Positions 6,903 through 21,774 of a DNA stretch of 46,956 bases are shown piece by piece. The DNA comes from Candidatus Dormiibacterota bacterium (GTDB lineage Bacteria > Chloroflexota > Dormibacteria > Aeolococcales > Bog-877), in NCBI GenBank assembly GCA_027306655.1, contig DAHUZL010000160.1, forward strand, positions 1 through 46,956, read 5' to 3'. The notes under the pieces were generated by a model that saw only the letters and a list, made by a program, of their open reading frames with translations, did not search any database and had not been told where the DNA came from. Positions within the stretch are counted from its first letter, which is position 1. Every line of letters starts with the position of its first letter. Made by a program: the position numbers and the translations under genes.

Positions 6903-8168
6903 ATGGCCGAGGTCCGGCCATTTCGGGGGCTGCGGTACGACCCCGACGTGGTCGACCTCGCGGCCGTGCTGGCGCCGCCCTACGACGTGATTGACGAGGC
7001 GCAGCAGACCGAGTTGTACGGGCGCGCGATGCAGAACGTCGTCCGCGTCGAGCTCGGGCAGGACCTCCCCGATGACGTCCCGGGCGTCCGTGACCGCTAC
7101 ACCCGTGCCCGCGGCCACCTCGAAGCCTGGCGCCGGACCGGGGCGATGGTGAGCGAGGACCGGGCCGCCCTCTACCTCCATGCCCACGCGTTCCACCCGC
7201 CCGGGGGCGGCTCGCTGGAGCGGCTCGGGGTCTTCGCGGCGGTGACCCCCGAGCCCTGGGAGGCCGGCGGGGTGCTGCGCCACGAGCACACCCTGAGCGG
7301 CCCCAAGCGGGACCGGCTCCAACTCCTGGAGGCGACCGGGGTCCAGGGATCGCCGGTCTTCGCGCTCTGGGAGGAGGGCGACCGCGCGACGGCGGCCCTG
7401 CGGCACCACGCCGCCACCACCCCACCCGCGGCCGAGGCGGTGACCGACGGCGAGAACGGGCACGAGCGCCACCGTCTTTGGGTGCTCGGCGAGGACGGTC
7501 CAACGGCCGCGGTGGTGGCCCAGGTGGTGCAGACACTGGCCGGCTCTCGCCTGGTCGTCGCCGACGGTCACCATCGCTACGAGACCGCCCTCGCCTACGC
7601 GACCGCGCACCCCGAGGCCCCGGCCCGGGTGCTGATGCTGCTCGCCCCGCTCGACGACCAGAGCCACGTGATCCTCGCCACCCACCGGATCGTCCCGCGC
7701 GCGTCCCTCGACGCGGAGGCGCTCCGCACCCGGCTCGCGGCCGCCGGCTACGGGTGGGACCCCGTCGCCGACCCCCGGACGGCGCTACGCCGGATGGCGG
7801 CCCTGCGGGAGCGGGCGCACGCCTTCGGGGTGATCGCCCCCGGCACCACGGCGGTGCTCCAGCGCGGGCGCCGGCCGGCCGCCAGCCCCCGGGCGGGGCT
7901 CGACGTCACGGTCCTTCAGGAGGAGGTGCTGACTGCGCACCTTGGCGTGGACGCCGACGCGGTGGCGGGCGGGCGACTGCGCTTCAGCCGTGACCCGGCC
8001 GCGGTGGCGCACGCTGTCGCGGACACGGACGGCCTCGGCTTCCTCGTGAACCCCACCACCGTGGCCGAGGTGGCCGCCGTCGCCCGCGCGGGTGAGTCGA
8101 TGCCGCAGAAGTCGACCTACTTCTTCCCCAAGGTGCCCACCGGGCTGGTGCTCCTGCCGGTCGACTGA
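6903..8168 (+). CDS. DUF1015 family protein (ParB/Srx-like fold)
   Basis: ATG 2 nt after the serA stop; MAEVRPFRGLRY, APPYDVI, HEHT...K.DR, ADGHHRYETA, MPQKSTYFFPK motifs typical of DUF1015. Confidence 0.88.
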   Translation: MAEVRPFRGLRYDPDVVDLAAVLAPPYDVIDEAQQTELYGRAMQNVVRVELGQDLPDDVPGVRDRYTRARGHLEAWRRTGAMVSEDRAALYLHAHAFHPPGGGSLERLGVFAAVTPEPWEAGGVLRHEHTLSGPKRDRLQLLEATGVQGSPVFALWEEGDRATAALRHHAATTPPAAEAVTDGENGHERHRLWVLGEDGPTAAVVAQVVQTLAGSRLVVADGHHRYETALAYATAHPEAPARVLMLLAPLDDQSHVILATHRIVPRASLDAEALRTRLAAAGYGWDPVADPRTALRRMAALRERAHAFGVIAPGTTAVLQRGRRPAASPRAGLDVTVLQEEVLTAHLGVDADAVAGGRLRFSRDPAAVAHAVADTDGLGFLVNPTTVAEVAAVARAGESMPQKSTYFFPKVPTGLVLLPVD

Positions 8169-8586: not shown

Positions 8587-9957
8587 TCAGGACGGCGCGA
8601 GCATCACGGTCCGGGTTTCCGTGTAGAAGTCGCGAGCGGCCAGACCCTGCTCGCGAGGCCCGAAGCTCGACTCCTTCGAGCCTCCGAATGGCGCGTGGAA
8701 ATCGACCCCAGAGGTTGGGGCGTTGACGCGGATCATGCCTGCTTGGACTTGGTTGGTGAGGCGCAGTGCTCGCTCAAGGTCACGGGTGAAGATGGACGTG
8801 ACCAGTCCAAACCGCACCGCGTTGGCGATGAGGATCGCCTCCTGGGACGAGTCGGCTCGGAGCACCGCGGCTACCGGCGCGAAGACCTCCTCACCGGCGA
8901 GGATCCCGGACGGGCTGTCCAACTCGACCAGGGTCGGCGCGAGATAGAAGCCCGGGTGATCCAGGGCCACGCCGCCCGTCAGCAGCCGGCCTCCGGCGCC
9001 CCCGATGGCGTCGAGGGCGGCGGAGCGGGCACGCTCGTCGATGACCGGTCCCACCAGCGTCTTCGCATCGGTCGGATCGACAACCTGGAGCGCCTCCACG
9101 GCGGCCGTGAGGCGCTCGCAGAACGCGGCGTACGCGGGCCGCTCGACGATGACGCGACTCGTCGCGGTGCACTTCTGCCCGGCATATCCCATCGACGCAT
9201 AGGCAATCGCGGTGGCCGCGTGATCGAGATCGGCGTCTGCCAGGACGACTGACGGGTTCTGGCCGCCCATCTCGGCTTGGACCCTCGCGCCGCGGCCAGC
9301 GACCCGGCGCGTGACGTCTCGTCCCACCGCCACCGATCCGGTGAAGGAGACGGCGGCGACGGTGGAGGCCTCCAGCAGGGGACGCGCCGTGTCGGCGCCT
9401 CCCAGCACGACCTGGAAGGCGTGATCCGGGAGGAACGGAGCGATGATCTCGTGGAGCAGGAGGGCGACCCCGGCCGCTGCACTCGCCGGCTTGAGGACAG
9501 TGGCATTGCCACAGGCGAGGCTAGGGGCCGCCTTCCACAGCGGGATCGCCACCGGGAAGTTCCACGGTGTCACGAGGGCGACTACCCCGAGCGGATGGCG
9601 CCGAACCATGAGGAGGGCGTCCGGGTCGGCGGCCGGCAGCGTCTCCCCATCCGGGAGCAGGACCATCTGGGCGTAGTAGCGAAGGATCGCAATCCCGCGG
9701 CTGACCTCTGCCCGGGCCTCGGAGAGAGGCTTGCCCACTTCTCGGACGGTGAGGTCCACGACCTCGTCGGCGCGTTGCTGGAGAGCCGCGGCCGCGTCGT
9801 GGAGAGCCGTGCCTCGACCCGACGCGGGGACGGTCCGCCAGGCGTCCGCCGCCCGCCGGGCCTGGCCGAGAACCGCGTCCACGGCGCGGTCGTCGGCTGC
9901 GGGCCACTCTCCGATGATGTCCGCCGGGTCGTGGGGGTTCACGCTGGTCACGGTCAT
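8587..9957 (-). CDS. Aldehyde dehydrogenase, alpha-ketoglutarate semialdehyde dehydrogenase (YcbD)-like
   Basis: TPWNFP, LKPAS, FTGSVAVG, catalytic EMGG, GQKCTATSR, EEVFAP, APFGGSKESSFGPREQG; start ATG at 9957 after SD GAGGTGG. Confidence 0.88.
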   Translation of the reverse strand: MTVTSVNPHDPADIIGEWPAADDRAVDAVLGQARRAADAWRTVPASGRGTALHDAAAALQQRADEVVDLTVREVGKPLSEARAEVSRGIAILRYYAQMVLLPDGETLPAADPDALLMVRRHPLGVVALVTPWNFPVAIPLWKAAPSLACGNATVLKPASAAAGVALLLHEIIAPFLPDHAFQVVLGGADTARPLLEASTVAAVSFTGSVAVGRDVTRRVAGRGARVQAEMGGQNPSVVLADADLDHAATAIAYASMGYAGQKCTATSRVIVERPAYAAFCERLTAAVEALQVVDPTDAKTLVGPVIDERARSAALDAIGGAGGRLLTGGVALDHPGFYLAPTLVELDSPSGILAGEEVFAPVAAVLRADSSQEAILIANAVRFGLVTSIFTRDLERALRLTNQVQAGMIRVNAPTSGVDFHAPFGGSKESSFGPREQGLAARDFYTETRTVMLAPS

Positions 9958-10054
9958 CGTGCCACCTCGATTGGTGATGCCATCAACGGCGTCCTGGCGA
10001 CCTCGTGCGGGGGCAGACTGGGGCTCCACCCGAGGGACCGGCGGTCGAGCGAGT

Positions 10055-11074
10055 CTACGTTGTCTGGATGTCGAGGAGCACCTTGCCGCGAGTCCCCTCC
10101 GTGCTACGGAGGGCAGCCACGGCCGCGTCCCACGCCGTCAGCGGGTAGCGGTGCGTGACCAGGAATCCCGGGCGGAGCCGTCCCAAGTTGAGGAGGGTGA
10201 CGGTGTCATGCCAGGCGCTGGATGTGTAGCTGAAGCTGCCCAGGATGGTGAGGTCGCGATTGACGATGTCACTCGGGACGACTGCCGCCGTCTTCCCGTG
10301 CGGCGGCAGCCCCAGCAGCGCGACCGTCCCTCCCCGGCGGGCGGCGGCCAGGGCATCGGCCACCGCATCGACCGAGCCGGCCGCCTCCACGACCAGATCG
10401 AATCCAGACCCCGCGGCTTCGGGAGCGGTTTCGAAGCGGTCGGCCCCCGCCGTCGCCGCCAGACCCGCCTGGGCCGGGCGGCGCCCGAGCACCACCGTCT
10501 CCGCCGGCGACCAGAGCCCGAGCAGGTGCACCGTGAGGAGCGCTACACTTCCGTCCCCGATGATCAGGGCTCGCTGTCCTGGTCCGACGCCGGCCCGGCT
10601 GAGAGCGCGATAGACGACGGCCGCCGGCTCGACGAGTGCGGCGTCTGTGGCGCCCACCGTTGCCTCCACCCGGTGCGCCAGGGTCGAGGGAACCAGCACG
10701 TGCTCCGCGGCCGCGCCATCGCGGGTGAACCCCAGCTCGTCGTAGGTATCGCAGAGGTTGGTCCGTCCGGCGCGGCAGCCGACACAGTGGCCGCAGGGCA
10801 CGACCCCCTCGACCACGACCCGCGTTCCCGCTGGGAAGGCCCCCTGGCCGCCCGCGGCGACGATCCCCGACCACTCATGTCCGAGCACGAGGGGGTACCG
10901 CACGTAGGCGGGATCCAACCGCCCGTCGATGATCTCGAGGTCGGTCCCGCACAGACCGACGACGTCGGGCCGGACCAGGAGCTGCCCCGGCCCGGCCACC
11001 GGGACGTCCCGCTCCAGGAGGAGCGTCTGGCCCGGTGCCCGAACCACAAGGGTCCTGCTTCGGGAGGCGGCCAC
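10055..11074 (-). CDS. Zn-dependent medium-chain dehydrogenase (sugar/polyol dehydrogenase-like)
   Basis: GLCGTD, LGHEWSG, structural-Zn motif CGHCVGC...C, Rossmann GDGSVA; GTG start chosen just after the iclR stop. Confidence 0.88.
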   Translation of the reverse strand: MAASRSRTLVVRAPGQTLLLERDVPVAGPGQLLVRPDVVGLCGTDLEIIDGRLDPAYVRYPLVLGHEWSGIVAAGGQGAFPAGTRVVVEGVVPCGHCVGCRAGRTNLCDTYDELGFTRDGAAAEHVLVPSTLAHRVEATVGATDAALVEPAAVVYRALSRAGVGPGQRALIIGDGSVALLTVHLLGLWSPAETVVLGRRPAQAGLAATAGADRFETAPEAAGSGFDLVVEAAGSVDAVADALAAARRGGTVALLGLPPHGKTAAVVPSDIVNRDLTILGSFSYTSSAWHDTVTLLNLGRLRPGFLVTHRYPLTAWDAAVAALRSTEGTRGKVLLDIQTT

Positions 11075-11079
11075 CTGGG

Positions 11080-11904
11080 TCAGGTGGTGCTGGCGCGGCC
11101 GGTCCTGGCACCGGCGGTGCCACCCAGCAGCTCGGAGATGCGGTCGGCGTACCTCACAACGGTGGCTCCGATCTGCTCGACCCGCCATCCCGGGAGGTCC
11201 CCCTTGATCCCGGTGGCGCTGATCGCACCGGCACAGGCCCCGCCCCGGCCGACGAACGCCGCGCCAGCGCAGAAGACGCCTTCGGCGTCCTCCTCGTCGT
11301 CGATGGCGAAGCCCCGACGCCTCGTCAAGGCGAGGTTCTCGAGCAGCGCCTCCACGTCGGTGATGGTGTGCGATGTTCGCGGGATCAGACCCGTCTGGGC
11401 ACAGACGGCGCGGACCTCGGGCTCGGGCAGCGTGGCCAGGATGGCCTTGCCTGCGGCCGAGGCGTAGGGCACCTCTCGTTGGCCGAGCGGCGTGTAGAAG
11501 CGGACGCTGCCCGGTCCGTCGACGCGCTCGATGAAGACCGGGTACCCGCCCTCGGAGATGGCCACCCGGGCGGTCAGCCGGGTTTCGGCCGCCAGCTGCT
11601 CCAACAGCGGGCGGCAGAGATCGCCGAGCGGAAGCTGCCGGCCAGCGATGTCGCCGAGCCGGATCAGAGCGGTTCCCAACGTGTAGCGCGGCCCCGGCCT
11701 GACGTCGCGGAGATAGCCGAAACGGACGAGGGTGCGTGCAAGGGCCAGGGCAGTGCTTTTGGAGGTCCCGAGCGACTGGGCCAGCTCGCTGAGCGACTGG
11801 CCTTCGCCGGACGCCCCTGCCGCGGACTCGACCAACCTGAGCGCCCGGGCCACGCTCTGGACCGTGTACCGGTCAATCGTCCGCTCGGTCGCCCGCGCCT
11901 CCAC
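11080..11904 (-). CDS. IclR family transcriptional regulator
   Basis: VQSVARALRL...LSELAQSLGTSKST HTH, YTLG, ASAAGKAILA, GFAIDDEE..EGVFC. Confidence 0.93.
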   Translation of the reverse strand: MEARATERTIDRYTVQSVARALRLVESAAGASGEGQSLSELAQSLGTSKSTALALARTLVRFGYLRDVRPGPRYTLGTALIRLGDIAGRQLPLGDLCRPLLEQLAAETRLTARVAISEGGYPVFIERVDGPGSVRFYTPLGQREVPYASAAGKAILATLPEPEVRAVCAQTGLIPRTSHTITDVEALLENLALTRRRGFAIDDEEDAEGVFCAGAAFVGRGGACAGAISATGIKGDLPGWRVEQIGATVVRYADRISELLGGTAGARTGRASTT

Positions 11905-11922
11905 GAAGACGTTCCCCCAAGT

Positions 11923-12034
11923 GTTCGGTCGGCAGGACCGAACCCCACTCTATCACGGTCCTCCGGAGTGCGGCTTGACATTCAGATCATCGGTGTGGTT
12001 GTATACCGCCCGACGATGTTCGCTCCTGCGCAAC
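11923..12034. promoter_or_regulatory. Divergent promoter/operator region of the IclR cluster
   Basis: Perfect inverted repeat GTTCGGTC-N5-GACCGAAC (11923-11943); minus-strand extended -10 TGaTAGAGT (11947-11955); plus-strand TTGACA (11975-11980); imperfect palindrome GTTCGC-TCCT-GCGCAAC (12018-12034). Confidence 0.55.
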
Positions 12035-12203
12035 TCAGGTCCGTCTGGGATGGCTCCCGATGACGGTAGGCACCTTCTCGGGAGAACGGTCGAGGGCCGG
12101 TGGGGGTGCATGGTCCCCGGTGGGCGACTCGTACGAGATGGGTGCCCCCTGCCGGCCCTGTCGGTGAGGCGGCGCTGGTGGACGCCCGAGAGGAGGGGAA
12201 TCG

Positions 12204-13127
12204 ATGACGGGGGCTGAGGTGCTGGCTCGGCACGACATTCCCTCCGAGCTCGCGCCGCCGCCCAGCCGGTGCCGGTTCCCGGATGGGGCCCACTTCCGGA
12301 TCGAGATTCCGAGCGTGGAAGGCCCGACTGTCCTCCGGGCGGTCGTCGAGGCGGCCGCGGCGGCCGGCCTCACGGTCAACCGCGTCTCCCAGGGCAGCGG
12401 GGCGATGCTGCTTTCGGCCGCAGAGCTGAGCGAGATGGCGCGGATCGGAGCGGACGCCGGGCTGGAGGTCTCGCTCTTCGTCGGCCCCCGAGAGGAGTGG
12501 GACCTGGGGGTTCAGTCGCGCGCCGCCGACGGCCCCGCCCTGGCTGGCCGCCTCCGTGGATCACGTCAGCTCCGCTATGCGGTGGACGACGTCCTCCGAG
12601 CCGTCGACCAGGGCATCCGGGGGTTCCTGGTCGCCGACACCGGGATGCTGGAGCTCGTCGCCGGGATGCAGGCGGCCGGCGAGCTTCCGGCCTCGGTGGT
12701 GTGGAAGGTCTCTGCCGTGCTCGCCCCCTCCAACTCGATCAGCCTGTGCCAGCTGGAGCGATTGGGGGGGTCGACCGTCAACGTACCGTCGGACCTCACC
12801 CTGGGGCAATTGGCGGAGCTCCGCGCGGCGACGACCGTCCCCCTCGACCTCTACGTCGAAGCACCGGACGCCATGGGGGGAGTGGTCCGCGGCCACGAGG
12901 CTGCCGACCTGGTCAGAGTGGCGGCTCCCCTCTACGTGAAGTTCGGCCTGCGGAACTCGCCGCTCCTCTACCCCAGCGGCCTGCACCTGGTCGATGAGGC
13001 GATCGCGATCGCGCGGGAGAAGGTGCATCGGGCCAGCGTGGCCCTGGAGTGGATCGACCGCAGCGGCCAGTGCCTGGTCCAGTCCCGCCCGGGAGCTCAA
13101 GGCCTGGGCATACCGGAGCCAGCGTGA
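12204..13127 (+). CDS. Uncharacterised 'peptidase U32-like' putative TIM-barrel protein
   Basis: SD GAGGAGG; FPDGAHFRIEIPSVEGP, RVSQGSG, SLFVGPR, GIRGFLVAD.G, PLDLYVEAP, YVKFGLRN resemble a family usually auto-annotated as U32. Function unknown. Confidence 0.7.
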   Translation: MTGAEVLARHDIPSELAPPPSRCRFPDGAHFRIEIPSVEGPTVLRAVVEAAAAAGLTVNRVSQGSGAMLLSAAELSEMARIGADAGLEVSLFVGPREEWDLGVQSRAADGPALAGRLRGSRQLRYAVDDVLRAVDQGIRGFLVADTGMLELVAGMQAAGELPASVVWKVSAVLAPSNSISLCQLERLGGSTVNVPSDLTLGQLAELRAATTVPLDLYVEAPDAMGGVVRGHEAADLVRVAAPLYVKFGLRNSPLLYPSGLHLVDEAIAIAREKVHRASVALEWIDRSGQCLVQSRPGAQGLGIPEPA

Positions 13128-13272
13128 GGTCTGCCCGTCTCCCCAGACTGACCAGCCCGGGGGCGTCTGCCCCAGCCCGTCGCGCCCTCGGGACTCGGCC
13201 ACCGTCACACCTATCGAGCAGCAAGCCGGCGAAATTCGATGCCCATTGCACTGGGATATTGGAGGGGACTTG

Positions 13273-14607
13273 ATGAATCATCGGACTCCAGCGAAGCGGG
13301 TTGGACCCGCGGCGGTGGCCCTGCTCTCGGCAGGAGTTCTGCTCGCCGCCTGTGGCTCTTCGGCCGCAGCCGTCCGCGCGGTCCCTGCGGCGCGAACCCA
13401 GGTCCATCTGACGCTATGGCAGAACTACGGCACCGAGGCCAACGCGACCGCAACCACCAACCTGGTGAATGCCTTCGAAAGGCTGCATCCTGGAATACGG
13501 ATCAGCGTCGTCGGCCAGCCTGCCAGCAACTACTTCTCCCTGCTTCAGGCTGCGGCCATATCCCGGACCGGCCCAGATCTGGCTGTCATGTGGACTGGCC
13601 TCTTCACCCTGCAGTACAAGGGCTATCTGGAGAACCTCAAGTCGTGGGTCCCCAAGGCCGATCTCGCGTCGATGCTCGGGCTGCGCTGGACCGCCAACGG
13701 CTTCAATACGGCCAGCGGTCCGTATGTGATTCCGCTCGAGGACCAGTTCTACATCGGCTTTTACAACAAGAAGCTCTTCGCCAAGGCTGGAATCACCGCG
13801 GTTCCTCGCACCTGGACCCAGCTCTTCTCCGACTGCAACAAGCTCAAGCTGGCCAAGACCACCTGCCTGTACTATGGCGCCGGCTCTCAGAACCTCGGGG
13901 CTGAGTTCTACCCCTGGTATGACCTGAGCTATCTCATGATTGGCCAGTTCTCGCTGACGCAGTGGCAGGGCCTCTTCAACGGAACGATCCCATGGACCAG
14001 TCCGGCGGTGGAAGCCCAGCTGGCCAAGTGGCACGAGCTCTATGCCGACGGGTACACCAACAAGAACGTCATCACCTCGATCGGCTCGCTGGTCGCCTTT
14101 GAGCATGGCAAATCGGCGATGCTCATCAAGGGCAATTGGGACCTAGCTCAACTGTACCAAGCCATGGGCAGCAACCTGGGGACATTTGTCCCGCCGTTCT
14201 CGACCCATCCAGTTAGCGGCGTGGTCCAGTACCCGGGCGATGGCTTTTCGATGACGACCTACTCTCAGCACAAGCCACAGGCTGCTGAGTTTCTCAGGTT
14301 CCTCACCACGCCTCAGGCGGGCCGGATCGTGGCCGCCAGCGGGCTGATCCCCGACGTGCGGGGGGTGGCTTCGACCAACCCCGTCAGTCAGCAGATGCTG
14401 GCCTTCGCAGCCAAGGACGGAATGGCCACCTACCCAATGCTCGACAATGTGACCCAACCCAACGTGGTCAACGCCGGCAGCAAGCTGATGCCGGAGCTAC
14501 TGGCTGGACAGATCTCCGTGAGCAGCGCCGCCAGTCAGTTGGAGCAAGCGTGGCGCCAGCTGCCTTTGAGTGAGCGAGGTCGGACCTGGGGAAGCTACAA
14601 GCCCTGA
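13273..14607 (+). CDS. Carbohydrate ABC transporter substrate-binding lipoprotein
   Basis: SD GGAGGGG; lipobox LAAC; GPDL, FYNKKLFAKAGI...PRTW.QL, G+SAMLI.GNW, AAEFLRFL motifs of CUT1-family binding proteins. Confidence 0.92.
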   Translation: MNHRTPAKRVGPAAVALLSAGVLLAACGSSAAAVRAVPAARTQVHLTLWQNYGTEANATATTNLVNAFERLHPGIRISVVGQPASNYFSLLQAAAISRTGPDLAVMWTGLFTLQYKGYLENLKSWVPKADLASMLGLRWTANGFNTASGPYVIPLEDQFYIGFYNKKLFAKAGITAVPRTWTQLFSDCNKLKLAKTTCLYYGAGSQNLGAEFYPWYDLSYLMIGQFSLTQWQGLFNGTIPWTSPAVEAQLAKWHELYADGYTNKNVITSIGSLVAFEHGKSAMLIKGNWDLAQLYQAMGSNLGTFVPPFSTHPVSGVVQYPGDGFSMTTYSQHKPQAAEFLRFLTTPQAGRIVAASGLIPDVRGVASTNPVSQQMLAFAAKDGMATYPMLDNVTQPNVVNAGSKLMPELLAGQISVSSAASQLEQAWRQLPLSERGRTWGSYKP

Positions 14608-14705
14608 GTAGGGCTCACCTCGCGCCGCCTCGGCGCACGGGGCCTTGCCACCGGCGAGGACCCTGTGCGCTGCGGCGGCGGTAAGAAAGGAGGACGCTGC
14701 CGGCG

Positions 14706-15695
14706 ATGAGACGAGCGCGAGCGGCCCCGGGCGAGGCTGGTGGCCCGGGGCCGATCGTGGCTGCCGTGGGCGCCGTGCCCAGCGGCGCCGGCCTCGACCC
14801 CGTTTCGGCCCCCAACCGGCGGCACCGGTCGGGGCTGCAGAGAACCCGGACTCGGACCAGCCTCCTGCTCACACTGCCAGGGCTGGCGGTGGTCGTGGCC
14901 CTGCTCATCGTCCCGATCGGCGAGGCCGTCTACTACAGCATGACGAACTGGGACGGCCTGACGGCCCAGTGGATCGGGCCGAGCACCTACCTCACGCTCT
15001 TCCAGAATCCCACCTTCTGGCGGGTGCTGGAGAACAACGGGCTGCTGCTGCTGTCAGTCCCCGTCGCGATGATCGTGCCCCTCTGCATCGCCGCCATGTT
15101 GCATGAGCACGTATGGGGCTGGAAAGTCTTCCGCTCGGTGATCTTTCTGCCCACGGCCGTGTCCTGGGTGGTCATCGGCATGGTGGCGGCACGAGTCTTC
15201 GCCCCCGGCGGCGCCGTCAACGGGGTGCTCGGAGCCGTCGGTCTGAGGTCGCTGCAGATTGACTTCCTCGGGCACGAGTACAGTGCCCTGGGCGCCGTCG
15301 CCGCCACCTTCGTCTGGTCGATGGTGGGCACCAACACGATCATCTTCCTCACCGGCATGTCGACCATCGACCCCGCGATCTACGAAGCCGGGAGGATCGA
15401 CGGAGCCTCTCGCCTGACCGCGTTTCTCCGCATCACGATTCCCCTCCTGAAACGATACTTCCAATTCAGCTTCGTGATCACCATGATCACCGCATTCACC
15501 GCGCTCTTCAGCCTGATATTCGTCATGACCGGCGGGGGTCCCGGCTATGGGACGACGACGCTCGAATTCTTTCTCTACCAGCAGGCATTTGACATCGGCC
15601 AGTTCGGCACTGGAGCGTTGATCGGGGTGGTCCTGTTTGTGATCCTCTTCGGGGTGAGTCTGGCGCAGATGCGCTTGCTCCGCGGCGAACACTAG
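14706..15695 (+). CDS. Carbohydrate ABC transporter permease (MalF-like); start uncertain
   Basis: YSMTNWDG, FRSVIFLP, EAA loop IYEAGRIDGAS, TGGGPG. Confidence 0.92.
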   Translation: MRRARAAPGEAGGPGPIVAAVGAVPSGAGLDPVSAPNRRHRSGLQRTRTRTSLLLTLPGLAVVVALLIVPIGEAVYYSMTNWDGLTAQWIGPSTYLTLFQNPTFWRVLENNGLLLLSVPVAMIVPLCIAAMLHEHVWGWKVFRSVIFLPTAVSWVVIGMVAARVFAPGGAVNGVLGAVGLRSLQIDFLGHEYSALGAVAATFVWSMVGTNTIIFLTGMSTIDPAIYEAGRIDGASRLTAFLRITIPLLKRYFQFSFVITMITAFTALFSLIFVMTGGGPGYGTTTLEFFLYQQAFDIGQFGTGALIGVVLFVILFGVSLAQMRLLRGEH

Positions 15696-16624
15696 TGGGC
15701 AGACCGCAGGGTCGGCCACCGAGCTCGGGCTCGGGGCTGTGGCCTGGAGGGGTTCGGCGGGCCCGCGGCCTGGGGACGAGGTCGGCAGCCGAGCAAGGAT
15801 GGCATCGACGGCCGCGACTGCTCCGGGACCCAGGCGCGGTCGCGATCTTCATCGCCCTGGTCCTGGTCAGCGGCGTGATGTGCTACCCGTTCATCTTCAT
15901 GATCGTCAACTCGCTGCGAAGTGAGAACCAATTCCTCAACGGCCAGGGCTTCTCGCTCGCCAGCTGGGGAGCATTGTTCCGGGCTCTGCCGGTGGTGACC
16001 GAGCTGCTCAACTCCACCCTGGTGTGCTCGGCCGCGATCGCCATCATCTTGGTGTGCTCGAGTGCCGCCGGCTTCGCCTTTGCCAAGCTGCGATTCAGAC
16101 GCCAAGCTTTTCTCTTCCTGGCTGTGATCGGGAGCATGATGGTGCCGGTGCAATCGATCATCATCCCTGAGTATGTGAATCTGGCCAACCTGCATCTGGT
16201 AAACAACTATCTGGGCCCGATCATGGTGTACGCGGCCCTGGGCACACCGTTCGCCACCTTCCTGATGACCGCCTTCTTCCGCGGCCTGCCGGACGAGTTG
16301 ATCGAGGCGGGGCTCTGCGACGGAATGAGCCCAGTCGGAGCATTCTGGCGGGTGGCGCTGCCGATGGCCAAGCCGGCGCTGGCGACGGTGGCGGTGCTTC
16401 AATTTATCCAGATCTGGGACGACTTCCTGGTGGGGCTGCTGTTCCTGCAGGAGCCGACCAATCGGACCATCACCGTTGGTCTGGGAGTGCTTTCGTCGGG
16501 GAGGGTGATCAGCATCCCGATTCTGATGGCCGGATCGCTGGTGAGCGCGGTGCCGGCAATTGTCGTCTACCTGACGTTCCAGCGGTACCTGGTCTCGGGG
16601 CTCACGCTGGGGGCGAGCCGGTGA
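15695..16624 (+). CDS. Carbohydrate ABC transporter permease (MalG-like); start uncertain
   Basis: LLNSTLV, AGFAFAKLRF, ELIEAGLCDG, WDDFL, FQRYLVSGLTLGA. Confidence 0.92.
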   Translation: MGRPQGRPPSSGSGLWPGGVRRARGLGTRSAAEQGWHRRPRLLRDPGAVAIFIALVLVSGVMCYPFIFMIVNSLRSENQFLNGQGFSLASWGALFRALPVVTELLNSTLVCSAAIAIILVCSSAAGFAFAKLRFRRQAFLFLAVIGSMMVPVQSIIIPEYVNLANLHLVNNYLGPIMVYAALGTPFATFLMTAFFRGLPDELIEAGLCDGMSPVGAFWRVALPMAKPALATVAVLQFIQIWDDFLVGLLFLQEPTNRTITVGLGVLSSGRVISIPILMAGSLVSAVPAIVVYLTFQRYLVSGLTLGASR

Positions 16625-16787
16625 GCGACGCGACGCAACGGATAGCGGGAACGGCGAAGGAGGAATGGACGACGGCCACCGGGAGAGTGCTCGGCGAGGG
16701 GCCGACAGGGTGGTGGCGCCCGCGGTACGGGCGACGTGGACCAGCCACTGGGCGTGCCCTCGGCCTGGGTGGCACCGGAGATTTCAG

Positions 16788-18512
16788 ATGAGCCCACTGC
16801 GCAGCGGCCGGTGGCTGGACGGGGATGACGAGATTGCCGTGCTCCACCGGGTGGCGATGGCCTCGGCGGGGGCGGCCGCTTCCAGTCCTGGCCCCCATCC
16901 GGTGATCGGGATCGCCAATTCAGCCAGCGACCTCAACCCGTGCAATCTGCCGTTGCGCGAGCTGGCGGAGTCGGTCCGCCGCGGTGTCGGTGCTGAAGGT
17001 GGGATCGCGGTGGAATTTCCCACCATCTCGCTGGGTGAGGATCTGATGAAGCCCAGCGCGATGCTCTACCGCAATCTCCTGGCGATGGAAATCGAGGAGA
17101 CGATCCGGGCGTATCCGCTCGACGGGGTTGTGATCCTCGCCAACTGCGACAAGACCGTCCCGGGCGCACTGATGGGTGCGGCCAGTGCTGACGTTCCCAC
17201 CGTGCTTGTCACCGGCGGCGCCCGCGCCCCGGCCACCTTCAGGGGCCGTCGGATCGGCACCGGCACCGACCTCTGGCGACTCTGGGACGCCCGCCGGACG
17301 GGAGACCTGGACGACCAAGCCTGGCACGAGTTGGAGCAGTGCTTGGCCTGTGGCCTCGGAGCCTGCAACACCATGGGCACCGCCTCGACGATGGCCATCC
17401 TGGCTGAGGTCTTGGGGCTCATGCTCCCCGGCGCCAGCACCATCCCATCCGGTGATCCGCGGGCCGGACCAGCGGCGTTTGAAGCGGGGCGCCGGGCGGT
17501 GGCGGCCGCCCAGGAGGGGATCCGGCCAACCGAGATCCTATCGTCGGCGGCCTTCGCCAATGCCACGCGCGTCCTGCACGCGATCGGCGGGTCCACCAAT
17601 GCCGTCATCCATCTGGCCGCGCTCGCCGGACGCGTGGGGATCCCCTACCTGCTCGACGACGTGGGCCGATTGGGACGGGACATCCCAGTGCTGGTCGACG
17701 TCGAGCCGTCGGGCACCGGCCTGGTTCAGGATTTCGACGCCGCTGGCGGCGTGCCCGCCTTGCTCCGCGAGATGACCGGGCTGCTCGACCTCGAGACCCG
17801 TACGGTAGCGGGCGTGACTCTGGCTGACATCGCCGCGGCCGCTCCCGCCGCCACTGGCGCGATCCGACCGCTGGCACGGCCGGTTCGGCCTGGGGGAGCG
17901 CTGACTGTCCTCCGCGGGTCGCTGGCACCCGACGGAGCGATCGTGAAGACATCGGCAGCCACGCCCGGGCTGCTTCGGCATCGCGGTCCGGCGCTCGTCT
18001 TCCGTGGCTACCAGGACATGCGTGACCGGGTCGATGATCCCGATCTGGAGGTGACGGCCGAGACCGTGCTGGTGCTGGCGGGGTGCGGTCCGGTCGGAGC
18101 GCCGGGCATGCCGGAATGGGGGATGATCCCCATCCCCGCCCGGCTCGCGTCGGTGGGAGTTCGGGACATGGTCCGGGTCACGGACGCGCGGATGAGCGGA
18201 ACCGGGTTTGGAACCGTGGCTCTACACGTCGCCCCCGAGGCCGCGATCGGCGGGCCGCTGGCGCTGGTCCACGACGGCGACATGGTGACCATCGATGCCG
18301 AGACCGGCCGGCTCGACCTGGAAGTGACCGCCGAGGAGCTCGCCCGTCGTCGGGCCTTGTGGTCGCCCACCGCCTCTCCCCACCTGCGGGGCTGGCCCGC
18401 CCTCTACCGACGCCACGTGCTGCAGGCGCCGCAGGGGTGCGATCTTGACTTCCTGCAGGCCCCGACTCCGGAGCATCGGCGGTTCATCGAGCCCGTGATC
18501 GGGAGATCCTGA
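16788..18512 (+). CDS. IlvD/Edd family [2Fe-2S] sugar-acid dehydratase (L-arabinonate/D-xylonate dehydratase-like)
   Basis: SDLNPCN, CDKT, GACNTMGTASTM, GGSTNA, GAPGMPEWG, TDARMSGT, C-terminal GCDLDFL; these resemble sugar-acid dehydratases rather than biosynthetic IlvD. Confidence 0.9.
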   Translation: MSPLRSGRWLDGDDEIAVLHRVAMASAGAAASSPGPHPVIGIANSASDLNPCNLPLRELAESVRRGVGAEGGIAVEFPTISLGEDLMKPSAMLYRNLLAMEIEETIRAYPLDGVVILANCDKTVPGALMGAASADVPTVLVTGGARAPATFRGRRIGTGTDLWRLWDARRTGDLDDQAWHELEQCLACGLGACNTMGTASTMAILAEVLGLMLPGASTIPSGDPRAGPAAFEAGRRAVAAAQEGIRPTEILSSAAFANATRVLHAIGGSTNAVIHLAALAGRVGIPYLLDDVGRLGRDIPVLVDVEPSGTGLVQDFDAAGGVPALLREMTGLLDLETRTVAGVTLADIAAAAPAATGAIRPLARPVRPGGALTVLRGSLAPDGAIVKTSAATPGLLRHRGPALVFRGYQDMRDRVDDPDLEVTAETVLVLAGCGPVGAPGMPEWGMIPIPARLASVGVRDMVRVTDARMSGTGFGTVALHVAPEAAIGGPLALVHDGDMVTIDAETGRLDLEVTAEELARRRALWSPTASPHLRGWPALYRRHVLQAPQGCDLDFLQAPTPEHRRFIEPVIGRS

Positions 18513-18585
18513 ATTATGAAGAGGCCGGATCGGCGCCCGCGGCCTGCCGCCTCGGCACCACGCGGCCGCGCCGACCCATCCATGC

Positions 18586-19494
18586 GTGGAGTCTGACTCG
18601 AACCGACCCTTGACCCTGTCCGCGGAGGTGGCCCTACCGGCACAGGCCCGTCTGGGCGAGGGCCCACTTTGGGAGAGGGATGAGGCGACCCTGTGGTGGG
18701 TGGACATTCTGGCTGCCCGGGTACATCGATTCTCCCCTCGTTCCGGCACCGACGACAGCTTCGAGACCGGCTCGCCGGTCGGGGCGGTCGGCCTGCGGGC
18801 CGACGGTGGACTGGTCCTCGCACTCGAAGGCAACTTCGCCACCGCCGACCGCGACGGCCGCCGGTTGGAAGCCGTGACCGGCTTCACCGTGGACACCGTC
18901 GCGGTTCGCTTCAACGACGGCAAGGTGGATCCATGGGGAGGATTCTGCGCGGGGACGATGGACCGGTCCGATGAGCGATCACGCGGAGCGCTTTATCGGC
19001 TTGGTCCGGACCTCGCCGTAACCGTGCTGAGGACCGAGGTGGCTTGCTCCAATGGTCTCGACTGGACAGACGACGGCCGTTACCTCTACTACATCGACAC
19101 GCCGACCCGGTCGGTGGATCGCTTCGCGATCGACCCCGAGACCGGAGGGCTGCGGCGGCGCCAGCGAGTGGTGCGGCTGGACGGGCCGGGGATGCCAGAT
19201 GGGATGGCCCTCGACGGAGAAGGATGTGTGTGGGTGGCGCTGTGGGGAGGCGGCCAGGTGCGTCGCTACACCCCAGGGGGCAGGCTGGACCGAGTCATCA
19301 CCTTGCCTGTGTCGCTCGTCACCAGCGTGGCCTTTGGCGGCGACCATCTTGACGAGCTCTACATCACCACCGCCAGCGACGAGCTCTCGGCCCAAGCCCG
19401 CCGCGATGAGCCCCATGCGGGCGACCTGTTCTGGTGCGCCGCCGGGGTCCGGGGACGACCGTCCCACCGCTTCGGCGGTGGAGGAGCGCTATGA
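18586..19494 (+). CDS. SMP-30/gluconolactonase family lactonase
   Basis: LGEGPLW, RFNDGKVDP.G, SNGLDW, YYIDT, PDGMALD.EG.VWVALWGG, VAFGG..LDELYITTA. Confidence 0.93.
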   Translation: MESDSNRPLTLSAEVALPAQARLGEGPLWERDEATLWWVDILAARVHRFSPRSGTDDSFETGSPVGAVGLRADGGLVLALEGNFATADRDGRRLEAVTGFTVDTVAVRFNDGKVDPWGGFCAGTMDRSDERSRGALYRLGPDLAVTVLRTEVACSNGLDWTDDGRYLYYIDTPTRSVDRFAIDPETGGLRRRQRVVRLDGPGMPDGMALDGEGCVWVALWGGGQVRRYTPGGRLDRVITLPVSLVTSVAFGGDHLDELYITTASDELSAQARRDEPHAGDLFWCAAGVRGRPSHRFGGGGAL

Positions 19495-19832
19495 GGACGT
19501 GGCCCGGGTCGGTGGAGATCGGGTGGTCCCCCTGAGCGAGGGCACGGCGCGGGGGCCCATCGTCCCCCGCTGTCGCGGCGGGGGGCGGATGGGGGAGCTG
19601 ACCGGAACGTGCGGGCCGGCCGGCCGACCGCTGGCTGGCAGTGCACCGCCGAGCCTGGAGGTTGGGATGGCAGAGGGTTCCGAAGCCGGCGCCGTGGTCG
19701 GGGGCGGTGGGCACCGGTCGGGGGCAGGAGTTCCGCCCAGGCGAGTGCCGAGGCTGCTGGCGCCACGGCCCAGCGCGGCCGGAGGCACCCGGCCGATGGG
19801 TCGGCGGTGACCGAGGAATGCGGGGAGGTTTG

Positions 19833-20978
19833 ATGGTGGACCGAGGGTCGAGGCACGCCCACATCGCCGAGGTCATGGGCCGGATTCGGGGTTGGCTGGC
19901 CGCAACCGGCTGGCCGGGGGTTGTGCTGACTCAGCCGGCCGCGGTGGCCTGGGCGACCGGGGGGATGAACCCCGCGATCGACCGGTGTGCGGCCACCGAC
20001 CTGCTCTGGATTGCGGTCGCCTCCGATCGCTGTGCGGTCATCACCACGGTCATAGAGCGCGACCGAGTGGAGGCGGACTCGGATCCTGCGCGCCACGGCT
20101 TCGAATTGCTGGCGGTGCCGTGGCACGGCGCATCGCAGTTCGTGGATGCGGCTGTGCTCTTCCTCGACCACCCTGCCGCGGCACTCGCCACTGATGGACA
20201 CCCTGCATTCGGGGCCAACGTGGGGGAGGCACTGGTGCGATTGCGGCTGGCCCACACCGTCGCGGCACAGGACGCGATCCGGTCGCTGGGGGCGGACACG
20301 GTCGGTGCGCTCGAAACCGCGCTCACGGCGTGGGTGCCCGGGGAGGTCGACCGCGCGATCCAGGCGCGCATGGTGGCGGAGCTCGAGCAACGAGGAATCG
20401 AGACCGTCGTGGCGTTGGTCTCCGGCGACGACCGTGTCGAGCGGTTCCGGCACCCGATCGCAGCTGACATACCCGTGGCGCGGCTGGTGATGGCGGTGAT
20501 CGTCTCCCGCCGCGACGGGCTGCACGTCGCGGCGACCCGGCTGGCCTGCGCTGGACGGATCGACCCCAAGCTGGCAGGACGGTTGGCCCAGGTCAGAGCC
20601 GTTGAGGCTGCGGTTCTCGACGCGTGCCAGGAGGGATCGACGTACGGGCAGGCGACCGACGGGCTGGAGCGGGCGTACGCGGCCATCGGCGAACCCCAAG
20701 CGTGGCGGGAACACTATCAGGGCGGGCCAATCGGCTACGCCAGCCGGGAGTTCGAGTTCGCGCCACGCGAGCGGACGAACCGCTGGTGGGACTGCCCGGT
20801 GGAGGTCGGTCACGCGCTCGCGTGGAATCCCAGCCTCTCCGGGGGTGCCAAGGTGGAGGACACCTTTCTGGTCGGCCCCCTGGGGCTGGAATGCGTCACC
20901 CGCCCCATCGGCTGGCCGGTAGAGGGAACGGGCGGCGACCGAGGCCAAGAACGTGCGGCAGTCCTCGAGGTGTCCTGA
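19833..20978 (+). CDS. M24 (pita-bread/creatinase-fold) family protein, atypical
   Basis: SD GGGGAGG; creatinase-N-like N-terminus (VAWATGG), FRHP, HYQGGPIGY..RE, WNPS..GAKVEDT. Confidence 0.8.
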   Translation: MVDRGSRHAHIAEVMGRIRGWLAATGWPGVVLTQPAAVAWATGGMNPAIDRCAATDLLWIAVASDRCAVITTVIERDRVEADSDPARHGFELLAVPWHGASQFVDAAVLFLDHPAAALATDGHPAFGANVGEALVRLRLAHTVAAQDAIRSLGADTVGALETALTAWVPGEVDRAIQARMVAELEQRGIETVVALVSGDDRVERFRHPIAADIPVARLVMAVIVSRRDGLHVAATRLACAGRIDPKLAGRLAQVRAVEAAVLDACQEGSTYGQATDGLERAYAAIGEPQAWREHYQGGPIGYASREFEFAPRERTNRWWDCPVEVGHALAWNPSLSGGAKVEDTFLVGPLGLECVTRPIGWPVEGTGGDRGQERAAVLEVS

Positions 20979-21387
20979 CCCCGGCATCCGCGCGCCGTCC
21001 AGCGCGGCGGGGCGCCCGGCCCGATGGCTGCGGCCTACGCCCCTCCGCTGGCCGGTGAGGCCGCTCGATCGGGATTGGCACCTGGACTGCCGTCACGGCC
21101 GTCGACGGCGCGGGGCGCCCACAAGCCTGCGGGAGGATCGAGAGGGCAAGGGTCCGGGCGGCTCTGGTGGCCAGCCCTTGCGTCTTCTCCCCTTCGAGGG
21201 ACCTCCCGTGCCGCCCCTCCCCGGCGCCTCTGGAGGCGGCGCGACGCCCCGCCCCGCCTCGACCGCAGGCTCCCTCTGGGGCTTGGGAAGCGAACCGATG
21301 GGCGGCCGAGTCCGGCCCATGCTGGCGGGGCCCGCCCCCGGCGATCGGCGTTTGCCCGCCGGCCCGTTCGGGTACGCTGTGATGGCG

Positions 21388-21774
21388 ATGCCCACGTACG
21401 TGTACCGGTGCGAGGCCGACCACGAGTTCGAGGCGGTCCAGCCCATCGTCGACCGTCCGCTCTCGGTGTGCGCCGTCTGCGAGGCGCCGGTGCGGCGGGT
21501 GGTCATGCCGGTCGGGATCGTCTTCAAGGGCAGCGGCTTCTACAAGACCGACTCGCGGAAGGCGGAGAGCACCCCCGCCGCGAGACCGTCCGAGCCCGCG
21601 GCCAAGCCGGCCGAGTCCACCCCGACCTCGGTCGGGGCGCCCGCGCCCGCCCCCGGCCCGACCGCCCCGACGGCGTCGCCCGCCCCAGCCGGCAGGACGG
21701 GCGCCCGCACCCGCGCGGGCTCGGCGGGCTCATCGGGTGGCGGGGTCGCCACCACCACCCCCGCCAGCGGCTGA
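21388..21774 (+). CDS. FmdB family zinc-ribbon protein with a low-complexity tail
   Basis: MPTYVYRC...HEFEAVQ...CAVC...VRRV...GIVFKGSGFYKTDSR. Confidence 0.9.
   Translation: MPTYVYRCEADHEFEAVQPIVDRPLSVCAVCEAPVRRVVMPVGIVFKGSGFYKTDSRKAESTPAARPSEPAAKPAESTPTSVGAPAPAPGPTAPTASPAPAGRTGARTRAGSAGSSGGGVATTTPASG

Follow-up and report, generated by a model that had tools for sequence, protein, structure and literature searches.

A U32-like barrel family linked to sugar-acid dehydratases in a putative non-phosphorylative sugar oxidation cluster of an uncultured member of the Dormibacteria

Which enzyme acts on the 2-keto-3-deoxy acid in a sugar oxidation cluster that carries none of the genes known for this step? 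The question is raised by the window, by which we mean the whole stretch of 46,956 nucleotides (positions 1 to 46,956 of contig DAHUZL010000160.1, our contig C229) from the Candidatus Dormiibacterota assembly GCA_027306655.1, a metagenome-assembled genome (MAG) of 2.8 Mb in 233 contigs with 74% GC and 92% completeness. The closest homologues of its proteins carry the name Candidatus Dormibacteria. Positions 8587-20978 encode an aldehyde dehydrogenase (ALDH), a Zn-dependent medium-chain dehydrogenase (ZnDH) and an IclR-family regulator on one strand, and on the other a protein resembling U32 peptidases (U32L), the binding protein and two permeases of a CUT1 sugar ABC transporter, an IlvD/Edd-family dehydratase, an SMP-30/gluconolactonase-family lactonase and an M24-fold protein (M24L). 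This gene content and strand arrangement had been given in a preliminary description of the locus; every gene was recovered at or close to its earlier position, and a third-position GC (GC3) of 0.78-0.88 in every coding frame of the cluster singles these frames out. Pfam and NCBIfam searches detected no kinase, fumarylacetoacetate hydrolase (FAH) or dihydrodipicolinate synthase (DHDPS) domain in any open reading frame (ORF) of the cluster, in agreement with the earlier statement that it contains neither a sugar kinase nor a canonical 2-keto-3-deoxy-acid enzyme.

This gene set appears to be best explained by a non-phosphorylative oxidative pathway that is under IclR control and consumes an imported aldose. 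The CUT1 system would bring in the sugar, ZnDH would oxidise it at C1 to a lactone, the SMP-30 enzyme would open the lactone ring and the IlvD/Edd enzyme would dehydrate the resulting aldonate to a 2-keto-3-deoxy-aldonate. U32L would then carry out a second dehydration to alpha-ketoglutarate semialdehyde (KGSA), which the ALDH, similar to the KGSA dehydrogenase GucD, would oxidise to 2-oxoglutarate. Less likely, U32L would perform an aldol cleavage to pyruvate and an aldehyde, the latter being oxidised by the ALDH. By analogy with related loci, a pentose (for example L-arabinose or D-xylose) is the most probable sugar, and galactose is a possibility. Nothing supports the N-linked or otherwise modified sugar considered earlier, and the GH43, GH51, mutarotase and xylA genes near the loci of relatives suggest unmodified pentoses or galactose.

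The keto-deoxy-acid step is assigned to U32L because the roles of mutarotase, dehydrogenase, lactonase, dehydratase, transport and regulator are already filled, and because U32L is linked to two unrelated dehydratase superfamilies that yield the same product class, a 2-keto-3-deoxy-aldonate. KGSA formation is ranked above aldol cleavage for the window because U32L and ALDH also occur as a two-gene module and because the ALDH has a profile like that of KGSA dehydrogenases. Overall, we put the chance that U32L is a KGSA-forming keto-deoxy-pentonate dehydratase at slightly under even. Families, folds and the linkage of the genes are observed; all substrates, the direction in which the pathway runs and the reaction of U32L are inferred.

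For each of the other steps a candidate is present at family level. The best NCBIfam models for the ALDH are the KGSA dehydrogenase GucD (428.6 bits, cut-off 770) and the 2,5-dioxovalerate dehydrogenase DioxValDhHalo (386.2 bits, cut-off 750), while all remaining ALDH models score at most 321 bits, including lactaldehyde dehydrogenase with 277. Among solved structures the ALDH has no match at E<=1e-100 and five at E<=1e-70 (best 257 bits), no KGSA dehydrogenase among them. The IlvD/Edd protein exceeds the NCBIfam cut-off for PRK06131 (727.7 bits, cut-off 539) and stays below that of the L-arabinonate dehydratase model (682.8 bits, cut-off 882); its solved relatives are the dehydratase 8ej0 (564 bits), the Rhizobium L-arabinonate dehydratase 5j84 (522 bits), a galactonate dehydratase (360 bits) and the Caulobacter enzyme 5oyn (321 bits). 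At family level, it would supply the aldonate dehydratase of a Weimberg-type pathway, and the SMP-30 protein, which scores 178 bits to regucalcin and 127 bits to 7plb of the SMP-30/Cgr1 family, would supply the lactonase. The CUT1 binding protein has no close relative among solved structures, the best being a chitin-oligosaccharide binder (71 bits).

Linkage of U32L to sugar-acid dehydratases

Gene neighbourhoods were compared in 80 loci, one genome per species, whose U32L is at least 70% identical to that of the window and which stem mostly from uncultured Actinomycetota and from Streptosporangiaceae. Neighbours were counted by tblastn (E<=1e-10, at least 50% coverage), and many misses reflect contig ends. 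IclR was found in 68 of these loci, always in the divergent layout of the window, ZnDH in 65, the binding protein in 64, M24L in 61, IlvD in 60, ALDH (63-72% identical orthologues) in 42 and SMP-30 in 39; a DHDPS homologue was found in none of the 80. Absence of conserved linkage between the two orphans and IlvD/Edd or lactonase genes had been named in the preliminary description as grounds for abandoning its reading, and the linkage proved to be conserved. Typically, ALDH, ZnDH and IclR occupy one strand in this order and the opposite strand reads M24L-U32L-IlvD-SBP-permeases-SMP30-MalK (SBP, substrate-binding protein), with 6-13 bases between the M24L stop and the U32L start in the actinomycete order M24L-U32L-IlvD. 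A MalK-type ATPase closes the cluster in 54 of the 80 loci; no ABC ATPase gene accompanies the binding protein and two permeases within the window cluster.

In three loci (L019, L022 and L028), a GucD-like ALDH that is 70-72% identical to that of the window forms a divergent pair with U32L, and no other cluster gene is present. These genomes contain IlvD only as 50-52% identical paralogues elsewhere. A pairing of KdpD with KGSA dehydrogenase is known from Weimberg clusters and resembles these U32L-ALDH pairs.

Because kinship makes the counts from the 80 loci overstate independence, a class-wide sample of 301 genomes, spread evenly, was also searched. Thirty-two were U32L-positive (a tally that includes one unpublished genome, not otherwise used), and about 10 kb per side was obtained for 30 of 33 places, with G126, G267 and G001 left out. 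An enolase-superfamily (MR/MLE) dehydratase is present in 18 of these 30 loci and an IlvD/Edd protein of at least 49% identity in nine, so that 26 contain either type and one locus both; ZnDH is present in 21 and SMP-30 in 11. M24L occurs in seven, every time with IlvD, and in none of the 18 enolase-type clusters. The enolase-type enzymes are galactonate-dehydratase-like (DgoD-like), the five that were scanned scoring 250-356 bits on NCBIfam PRK14017 (cut-off 311). They are typically accompanied by ZnDH, U32L, a CUT2 monosaccharide ABC transporter (12 loci) and an aldose 1-epimerase (nine loci), with GH43 and GH51 glycosidases nearby in seven and five loci, respectively. One locus (L222) contains the five-gene operon U32L-MR/MLE-ZnDH-ALDH-SMP30 divergent to a xylose isomerase gene (606 bits, Arthrobacter-type model), and its five genes would account for five pathway functions only if the open step falls to U32L.

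The association of U32L with IlvD/Edd enzymes extends to enolase-type dehydratases not only in the 18 class-wide loci but also on plasmids of cultured bacteria. The megaplasmid of Thermomicrobium roseum carries IclR, a sugar ABC transporter, an MR/MLE enzyme, a metallo-beta-lactamase (MBL)-fold hydrolase, a frameshifted permease and U32L (50% identity). The permease gene (L087 10747-11925), between the MBL hydrolase and U32L, consists of two frames of 207 and 181 amino acids, both matching BPD_transp_2, and is not in the plasmid gene table; the split stems from a frameshift or from an error in sequencing. Plasmid SNP1 of Streptomyces nigrescens encodes SMP-30 and IclR divergent from MR/MLE, ZnDH, U32L (46% identity) and a sugar ABC transporter. 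Judging by its homologues, U32L is widespread in Actinomycetota, Chloroflexota/Thermomicrobia and Dormibacterota, and its cultured carriers include T. roseum, Streptomyces and Nonomuraea.

Two further gene families were observed near U32L. A divergent ALDH-like family occurs in 10 of the 30 class-wide loci (for example L224 ~16452-19000, L225 15974-18500, L222 12773-14302 and L241 11031-12512) and scores at most ~108 bits on any NCBIfam ALDH model, the copy of L222 having no match at E<=1e-20. A FAD-linked gene resembling sugar-1,4-lactone oxidase/alditol oxidase (FAD_binding_4 and ALO; L218 10404-11678, L025 4850-6274) overlaps the U32L stop with its start in L218; in 20-24 of L007-L086 it is located about 8 kb upstream of U32L, and in many actinomycete loci only a few genes separate the two.

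More distant homologues were set aside. A subfamily of ~37% identity (Anaerolineae- and Synergistaceae-type), represented by 80 metagenome loci (L091-L170) with a called U32L gene in 61, retains the same invariant residues. Its neighbours in the 61 loci include CTP synthase (14), a DHDPS-Fae fusion (12), transaldolase/fructose-6-phosphate aldolase (11), pyruvate:ferredoxin oxidoreductase (10) and ketopantoate hydroxymethyltransferase (nine), and no sugar-acid genes were found beside it; with such central-metabolism neighbours it is uninformative for linkage in the window cluster. A homologue of 25.6% identity on a plasmid of Enterobacter chuandaensis (L088 11917-12855) shares an operon with an APH-type phosphotransferase, a 2-hydroxyacid dehydrogenase, an aminotransferase, iron-containing redox enzymes, an M14 peptidase and a major facilitator superfamily (MFS) transporter; this context resembles a small-molecule biosynthetic cluster, and the homologue was not used as an informative relative.

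Fold and conserved residues of the two orphans

U32L belongs to a large family that has remained unnamed. Among 8000 candidates scored, 6499 homologues were retained at E<=0.001, all of them unnamed or 'hypothetical', and the best 120, which are 75-89% identical, are designated 'hypothetical protein' at most; when the representatives at 50% identity were searched exhaustively, 977 clusters were found. Certain homologues carry a precomputed match to Peptidase_U32 (PF01136). In the window, PF01136 matches only residues 132-218 of U32L (E=0.0064, 16.2 bits, cut-off 22.4) and Peptidase_M24 (PF00557) matches M24L with E=9e-4 (19.5 bits, cut-off 23), both below threshold, and the earlier description of the two proteins as only family-like therefore holds.

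The AlphaFold2 (AF2) model of U32L (pLDDT, the predicted local distance difference test, 94.4) is an eight-stranded beta/alpha barrel. An alignment of 37 diverse members revealed (near-)invariant residues at S21, F25, D27, E34, R60, G66, G119, R132, G137, R139, D145, G147, P162, K168, S170, G188, N193, R207, G225, R229, P242 and K246, and no conserved Cys or His. Near-invariant charged residues form a ring at the strand ends, E34, D145, K168, N193 and K246 being placed within strands 1, 4, 5, 6 and 8, respectively, or at their ends, and the active site would lie on the C-terminal barrel face and involve E34, D145, K168, N193, R229 and K246. In the model, K168 or K246 could serve as a Schiff-base lysine, and a metal site would be compatible with the conserved acidic residues; the sequence by itself does not choose between the two. 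DHDPS-type enzymes of the keto-deoxy-acid step use Schiff-base chemistry (PMC9795676).

By sequence, U32L has no match among solved structures at E<=10, and a profile search returned only 5d88 (E=0.19). Foldseek retrieved class II aldolases, the U32 protein Mk0906 and CutC with template modelling (TM) scores of 0.42-0.51, the top matches being the class II aldolases YdjI, AgaY and sulfofructose-phosphate aldolase (E ~1e-7 to 1e-6, TM 0.43-0.49). As Foldseek and a wide VIA search yielded generic TIM barrels only, the function is not readable from the fold. The model suggests that U32L is a distant offshoot of U32/CutC-like barrels. Fe-S-binding cysteines define the studied U32 enzymes (RlhA, TrhP and UbiU/UbiV). 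We rejected a function as a U32 enzyme for U32L on account of its sub-threshold Pfam score, the lack of conserved Cys and its context of sugar-acid catabolism.

M24L has no meaningful match to solved structures by sequence alone. Its AF2 model (pLDDT 88.9) has the two-domain creatinase/prolidase architecture, and Foldseek matched it to PepE (E=1.5e-18, TM 0.71-0.73) and similarly to prolidases and creatinase (TM 0.64-0.72). In a profile alignment to the Pyrococcus prolidase 1pv9, whose metal ligands we take to be Asp, Asp, His, Glu and Glu, the five positions of M24L are a gap, A233, G298, N332 and E342, and the last four are invariant across 27 family sequences. With four of the five metal ligands lost, M24L is not a metallopeptidase; it retains an invariant His/Arg/Glu/Lys set.

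The search for M24L homologues returned 692 proteins. Full-length homologues of ~30% identity share the motifs RHP, RxGL...TR, HxQGG, WNP and GxKxEDT and sit in clusters that contain neither U32L nor a sugar-acid dehydratase. The homologue of Thermus brockianus (L171 9064-10029) lies downstream of xylFGH, a ROK regulator, xylA and xylB and ahead of a Gfo/Idh/MocA oxidoreductase gene, that of Halomicrobium (L172 8983-10074) adjoins an aldo/keto reductase gene with glucose 1-dehydrogenase and xylose dehydrogenase Gfo6 nearby, and that of Pantoea (L173 9013-10092) is flanked by GMC and SDR oxidoreductases downstream of an MFS transporter. Thirty-seven plasmid records match the clade, including 12 from Pantoea and 11 from Thermus. 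Judging by these neighbours, the M24L clade is separate, widespread and tied to sugar oxidoreductases. As a guess, M24L probably has an oxidised sugar (a lactone or keto-sugar) as its substrate, or else it is an accessory to the IlvD-type variant of the cluster.

Weighing the assignment of U32L

Somewhat short of an even chance, in our estimate, is the broader proposal that U32L represents a third, independently evolved family, beside FAH and DHDPS/NAL (NAL, N-acetylneuraminate lyase), acting after aldonate dehydration as a KGSA-forming dehydratase or kinase-independent aldolase with a U32/CutC-like barrel, and that M24L represents a pan-prokaryotic clade without four of the five metal ligands that acts on oxidised sugars.

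Several observations weigh against the proposed route. ZnDH is only putatively an aldose 1-dehydrogenase because its nearest solved relatives (4ej6, RspB and threonine/sorbitol dehydrogenases) oxidise secondary alcohols. Many of the 80 close loci come from related uncultured actinomycetes, and their synteny counts are not independent events. No dehydratase is encoded nearby in four of the 30 class-wide loci (L218, L220, L239 and L242), although in L218 and L220 U32L is nonetheless part of a sugar operon of the arabinan type that includes GH43 and GH51. The U32L family is not confined to sugar acids, because its distant subfamily occurs in central-metabolism contexts. Furthermore, a DHDPS-family gene shares the cluster with U32L, M24L and IlvD in L223-L227, five of the seven class-wide loci with IlvD and M24L, where it is located at the operon end and divergent, followed in L224 and L225 by a divergent ALDH. 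With this gene present, U32L would not be needed for the keto-deoxy step in these five loci unless the two enzymes handle opposite enantiomers. The co-occurrence speaks for either different stereoisomers (L- versus D-keto-deoxy-pentonate) or another role of U32L. Known enzymes discriminate between L- and D-keto-deoxy-pentonate (PMC7374468). The non-orthologous replacement proposed in the preliminary description agrees with the absence of a canonical enzyme from the window cluster and is called into question by these five related loci.

The strongest competitor, which we consider unlikely but not negligible, is that U32L is a non-phosphorylative 2-keto-3-deoxy-aldonate aldolase of the Dahms or non-phosphorylative Entner-Doudoroff type, cleaving 2-keto-3-deoxy-arabinonate (KDA), -xylonate (KDX) or -galactonate (KDGal) to pyruvate and glycolaldehyde or glyceraldehyde, with the ALDH, where present, oxidising the aldehyde. 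The T. roseum cluster and most enolase-type clusters (12 with CUT2) have no nearby ALDH, which favours aldol cleavage over KGSA formation, as cleavage would reach central metabolites unaided. The adjoining dehydratases are galactonate-dehydratase-like and thereby of a hexonate-like type, and for a hexonate-derived keto-deoxy acid cleavage is the only outcome known to us. The class II aldolases at the top of the Foldseek list and the transaldolase and DHDPS-Fae fusion near the distant subfamily point the same way. However, the TM scores of the aldolase matches are no better than those of CutC or U32 matches, and with no conserved His in the family U32L would have no class II Zn site. The window ALDH is closest to KGSA dehydrogenases rather than lactaldehyde, glycolaldehyde or glyceraldehyde dehydrogenases, and it is a KGSA-type ALDH with which U32L forms two-gene pairs.

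An improbable alternative is that the pathway hole is only apparent, the step being performed by an unlinked FAH protein, an HpcH/HpaI aldolase, or 2-keto-3-deoxygluconate (KDG) kinase with 2-keto-3-deoxy-6-phosphogluconate (KDPG) aldolase, while U32L acts elsewhere, in lactone or aldonate isomerisation or epimerisation or in the handling of a cyclic hemiketal. A co-regulated canonical dehydratase or aldolase elsewhere in the genome had been named in the preliminary description as a further reason to abandon its reading, and unlinked candidates for such an enzyme are encoded. No DHDPS/NAL-family gene, dapA included, was found in the genome (92% complete), dapA being either in the unassembled part or replaced by an alternative lysine route, but three FAH genes (contigs C205, C101 and C18), two HpcH/HpaI, one KDPG aldolase and nine PfkB kinase matches were, any of which could serve the keto-deoxy-acid step. 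Among the FAH genes, one has a GntR/FCD regulator gene as its divergent neighbour and one adjoins a homogentisate-dioxygenase-like gene. The lack of any dehydratase within 10 kb in L049 and L080, which otherwise contain U32L, ALDH, ZnDH, IclR and a transporter, and the DHDPS-family gene of the five related clusters are likewise consistent with an apparent hole. Yet none of the unlinked candidates is on the window contig, DHDPS is absent from all 80 close loci, and the FAH proteins fall far under every equivalog cut-off, two of the three scoring best on 2,4-didehydro-3-deoxy-L-rhamnonate hydrolase with 182-192 bits against a cut-off of 500. Few steps are left free for U32L, since mutarotase, lactonase and dehydrogenase are already filled in its clusters.

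That M24L rather than U32L replaces the keto-deoxy-acid enzyme, or that both form one heteromeric enzyme, is very improbable: the short M24L-U32L spacing in actinomycetes and a lost peptidase metal site with an invariant polar set, as for a fold recruited to new chemistry, would fit, but M24L is absent from all five genomes of U32L carriers tested (those of L019, L022 and L028 included) and from the enolase-type clusters, its clade exists without U32L or a sugar-acid dehydratase (Thermus, Pantoea, Halomicrobium), and in the window the two genes lie 6.7 kb apart at opposite operon ends. A heteromer is disfavoured by the occurrence of each protein without the other in whole genomes. Of the two orphans put forward earlier for the missing step, U32L has gained support from its linkage across dehydratase types, and M24L, confined to IlvD-type clusters, has lost it.

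The locus and its place among known pathways

The features of the cluster are compiled in the table. The ORF of ZnDH overlaps the IclR gene, and its true start is probably near 11071, past the IclR stop. The IclR protein contains both helix-turn-helix and effector domains. The divergent region contains a weak inverted repeat (11929-11967), and the ribosome-binding site of U32L is strong (GAGGAGGGG). A promoter-consensus scan gave no match in the divergent region or cluster, no Rfam family was found in the cluster including the divergent region, and terminators in the cluster are not above chance (two found, 3.4 expected).

Table. Features of the sugar oxidation cluster in the window (positions of the whole stretch)
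Feature	Position	Strand	Evidence
Aldehyde dehydrogenase (ALDH), closest to KGSA (2,5-dioxovalerate) dehydrogenases	8587..10029	-	Pfam Aldedh 449 bits
Zn-dependent medium-chain dehydrogenase (ZnDH), candidate aldose 1-dehydrogenase	ORF 10055..11188	-	Pfam ADH_N, Glu_dehyd_C, ADH_zinc_N
IclR-family regulator, divergent to the plus-strand operon	11080..11904	-	HTH_IclR and IclR_C
Divergent intergenic region with GAGGAGGGG ribosome-binding site directly ahead of the U32L ATG	11905..12203	.	Sequence read
U32-like protein (U32L), 307 amino acids, (beta/alpha)8 barrel, large uncharacterised family	12204..13127	+	GC3 0.877; AF2 model
CUT1 sugar ABC substrate-binding lipoprotein	13273..14607	+	SBP_bac_1; signal peptide with LAAC lipobox; start 13273 from lipobox and ribosome-binding site
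ABC permease 1	14706..15695	+	BPD_transp_1
ABC permease 2	15695..16624	+	BPD_transp_1
IlvD/Edd-family sugar-acid (aldonate) dehydratase, putative	16665..18512	+	ILVD_EDD_N and ILV_EDD_C; PRK06131
SMP-30/gluconolactonase-family lactonase, putative	18586..19494	+	SGL 266 bits
M24-fold protein (M24L), creatinase/prolidase fold	19833..20978	+	AF2 model; Foldseek

The cluster boundaries at 8587 and 20978 are right because the flanks are housekeeping genes, with serA and a DUF1015 gene upstream and genes for a Zn-ribbon protein and thioredoxin downstream. Upstream and unrelated to the cluster are a tRNA gene (1588-1661, Rfam 63 bits), a D-3-phosphoglycerate dehydrogenase gene with an ACT domain (5305-6900) and the gene for the DUF1015 protein (6912-8168). 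Directly past the cluster, an ORF with high GC3 (20953-21774) encodes at its end a CxxC...CxxC zinc-ribbon segment and, behind it, a tail rich in Pro/Ala; just its C-terminal third, from about an internal Met, looks like a genuine small protein.

In its logic the cluster resembles the Weimberg clusters of Caulobacter (xylXABCD), Azospirillum (araA-E) and Haloferax (xac), with which it shares IlvD/Edd, SMP-30, an ALDH of putative KGSA type and the lack of a kinase. Contrastingly, it contains no FAH (XylX/KdaD) or DHDPS/NAL (AraD) gene, the genome lacks DHDPS altogether, the dehydrogenase is a Zn-dependent medium-chain enzyme, and the described clusters include nothing equivalent to U32L and M24L. 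The sequence from sugar over lactone, aldonate and keto-deoxy-aldonate to cleavage is common to the Dahms and the non-phosphorylative Entner-Doudoroff/De Ley-Doudoroff pathways (YagE/YjhH, archaeal KDG aldolases), to which the related U32L clusters with galactonate-dehydratase-like enzymes are similar. Further aldolases of these pathways belong to KDPG- or HpcH-type families, and U32L matches none of the known ones by sequence. Those known also include members of the DHDPS/NAL family (PMC9795676).

U32L differs from the peptidase U32 family (Mk0906, RlhA, TrhP, UbiU/UbiV) in its score under the Pfam cut-off, its lack of conserved Cys and its sugar-acid context, and from CutC TIM barrels in an identity of only 10-15%, with a score barely over that of many unrelated barrels; CutC itself has, to our knowledge, no established enzymatic function. 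M24L shares its two-domain architecture with M24 proteins that have no dinuclear metal site, such as creatinase, and DddP and DoeA are also non-peptidases of this fold, but the M24L clade is found in sugar-oxidoreductase clusters and has no member with a known substrate. A 2022 review, as far as its available text goes, lists only FAH and DHDPS/NAL for the keto-deoxy-acid step (PMC9795676), and no description of U32-like proteins in sugar-acid metabolism was found in the literature searched (supplements not covered). New here, as far as gene content and conservation indicate, is a large and well-conserved family of uncharacterised function at the centre of a Weimberg/Dahms-like cluster.

Oxidative non-phosphorylative pentose routes have been engineered to convert hemicellulose sugars to 2-oxoglutarate-derived chemicals, and the keto-deoxy-pentonate step is a known limitation for which two enzyme families are available, according to the text available from two sources (PMC7374468, PMC9795676). 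If the assignment of U32L is true, a third family would offer new catalysts for this step. Thousands of genes annotated as 'hypothetical' or 'U32 peptidase' in soil Actinomycetota and Chloroflexota would thereby acquire a function, and metabolic reconstructions would be corrected for uncultured lineages like the one represented by this 2.8-Mb MAG.

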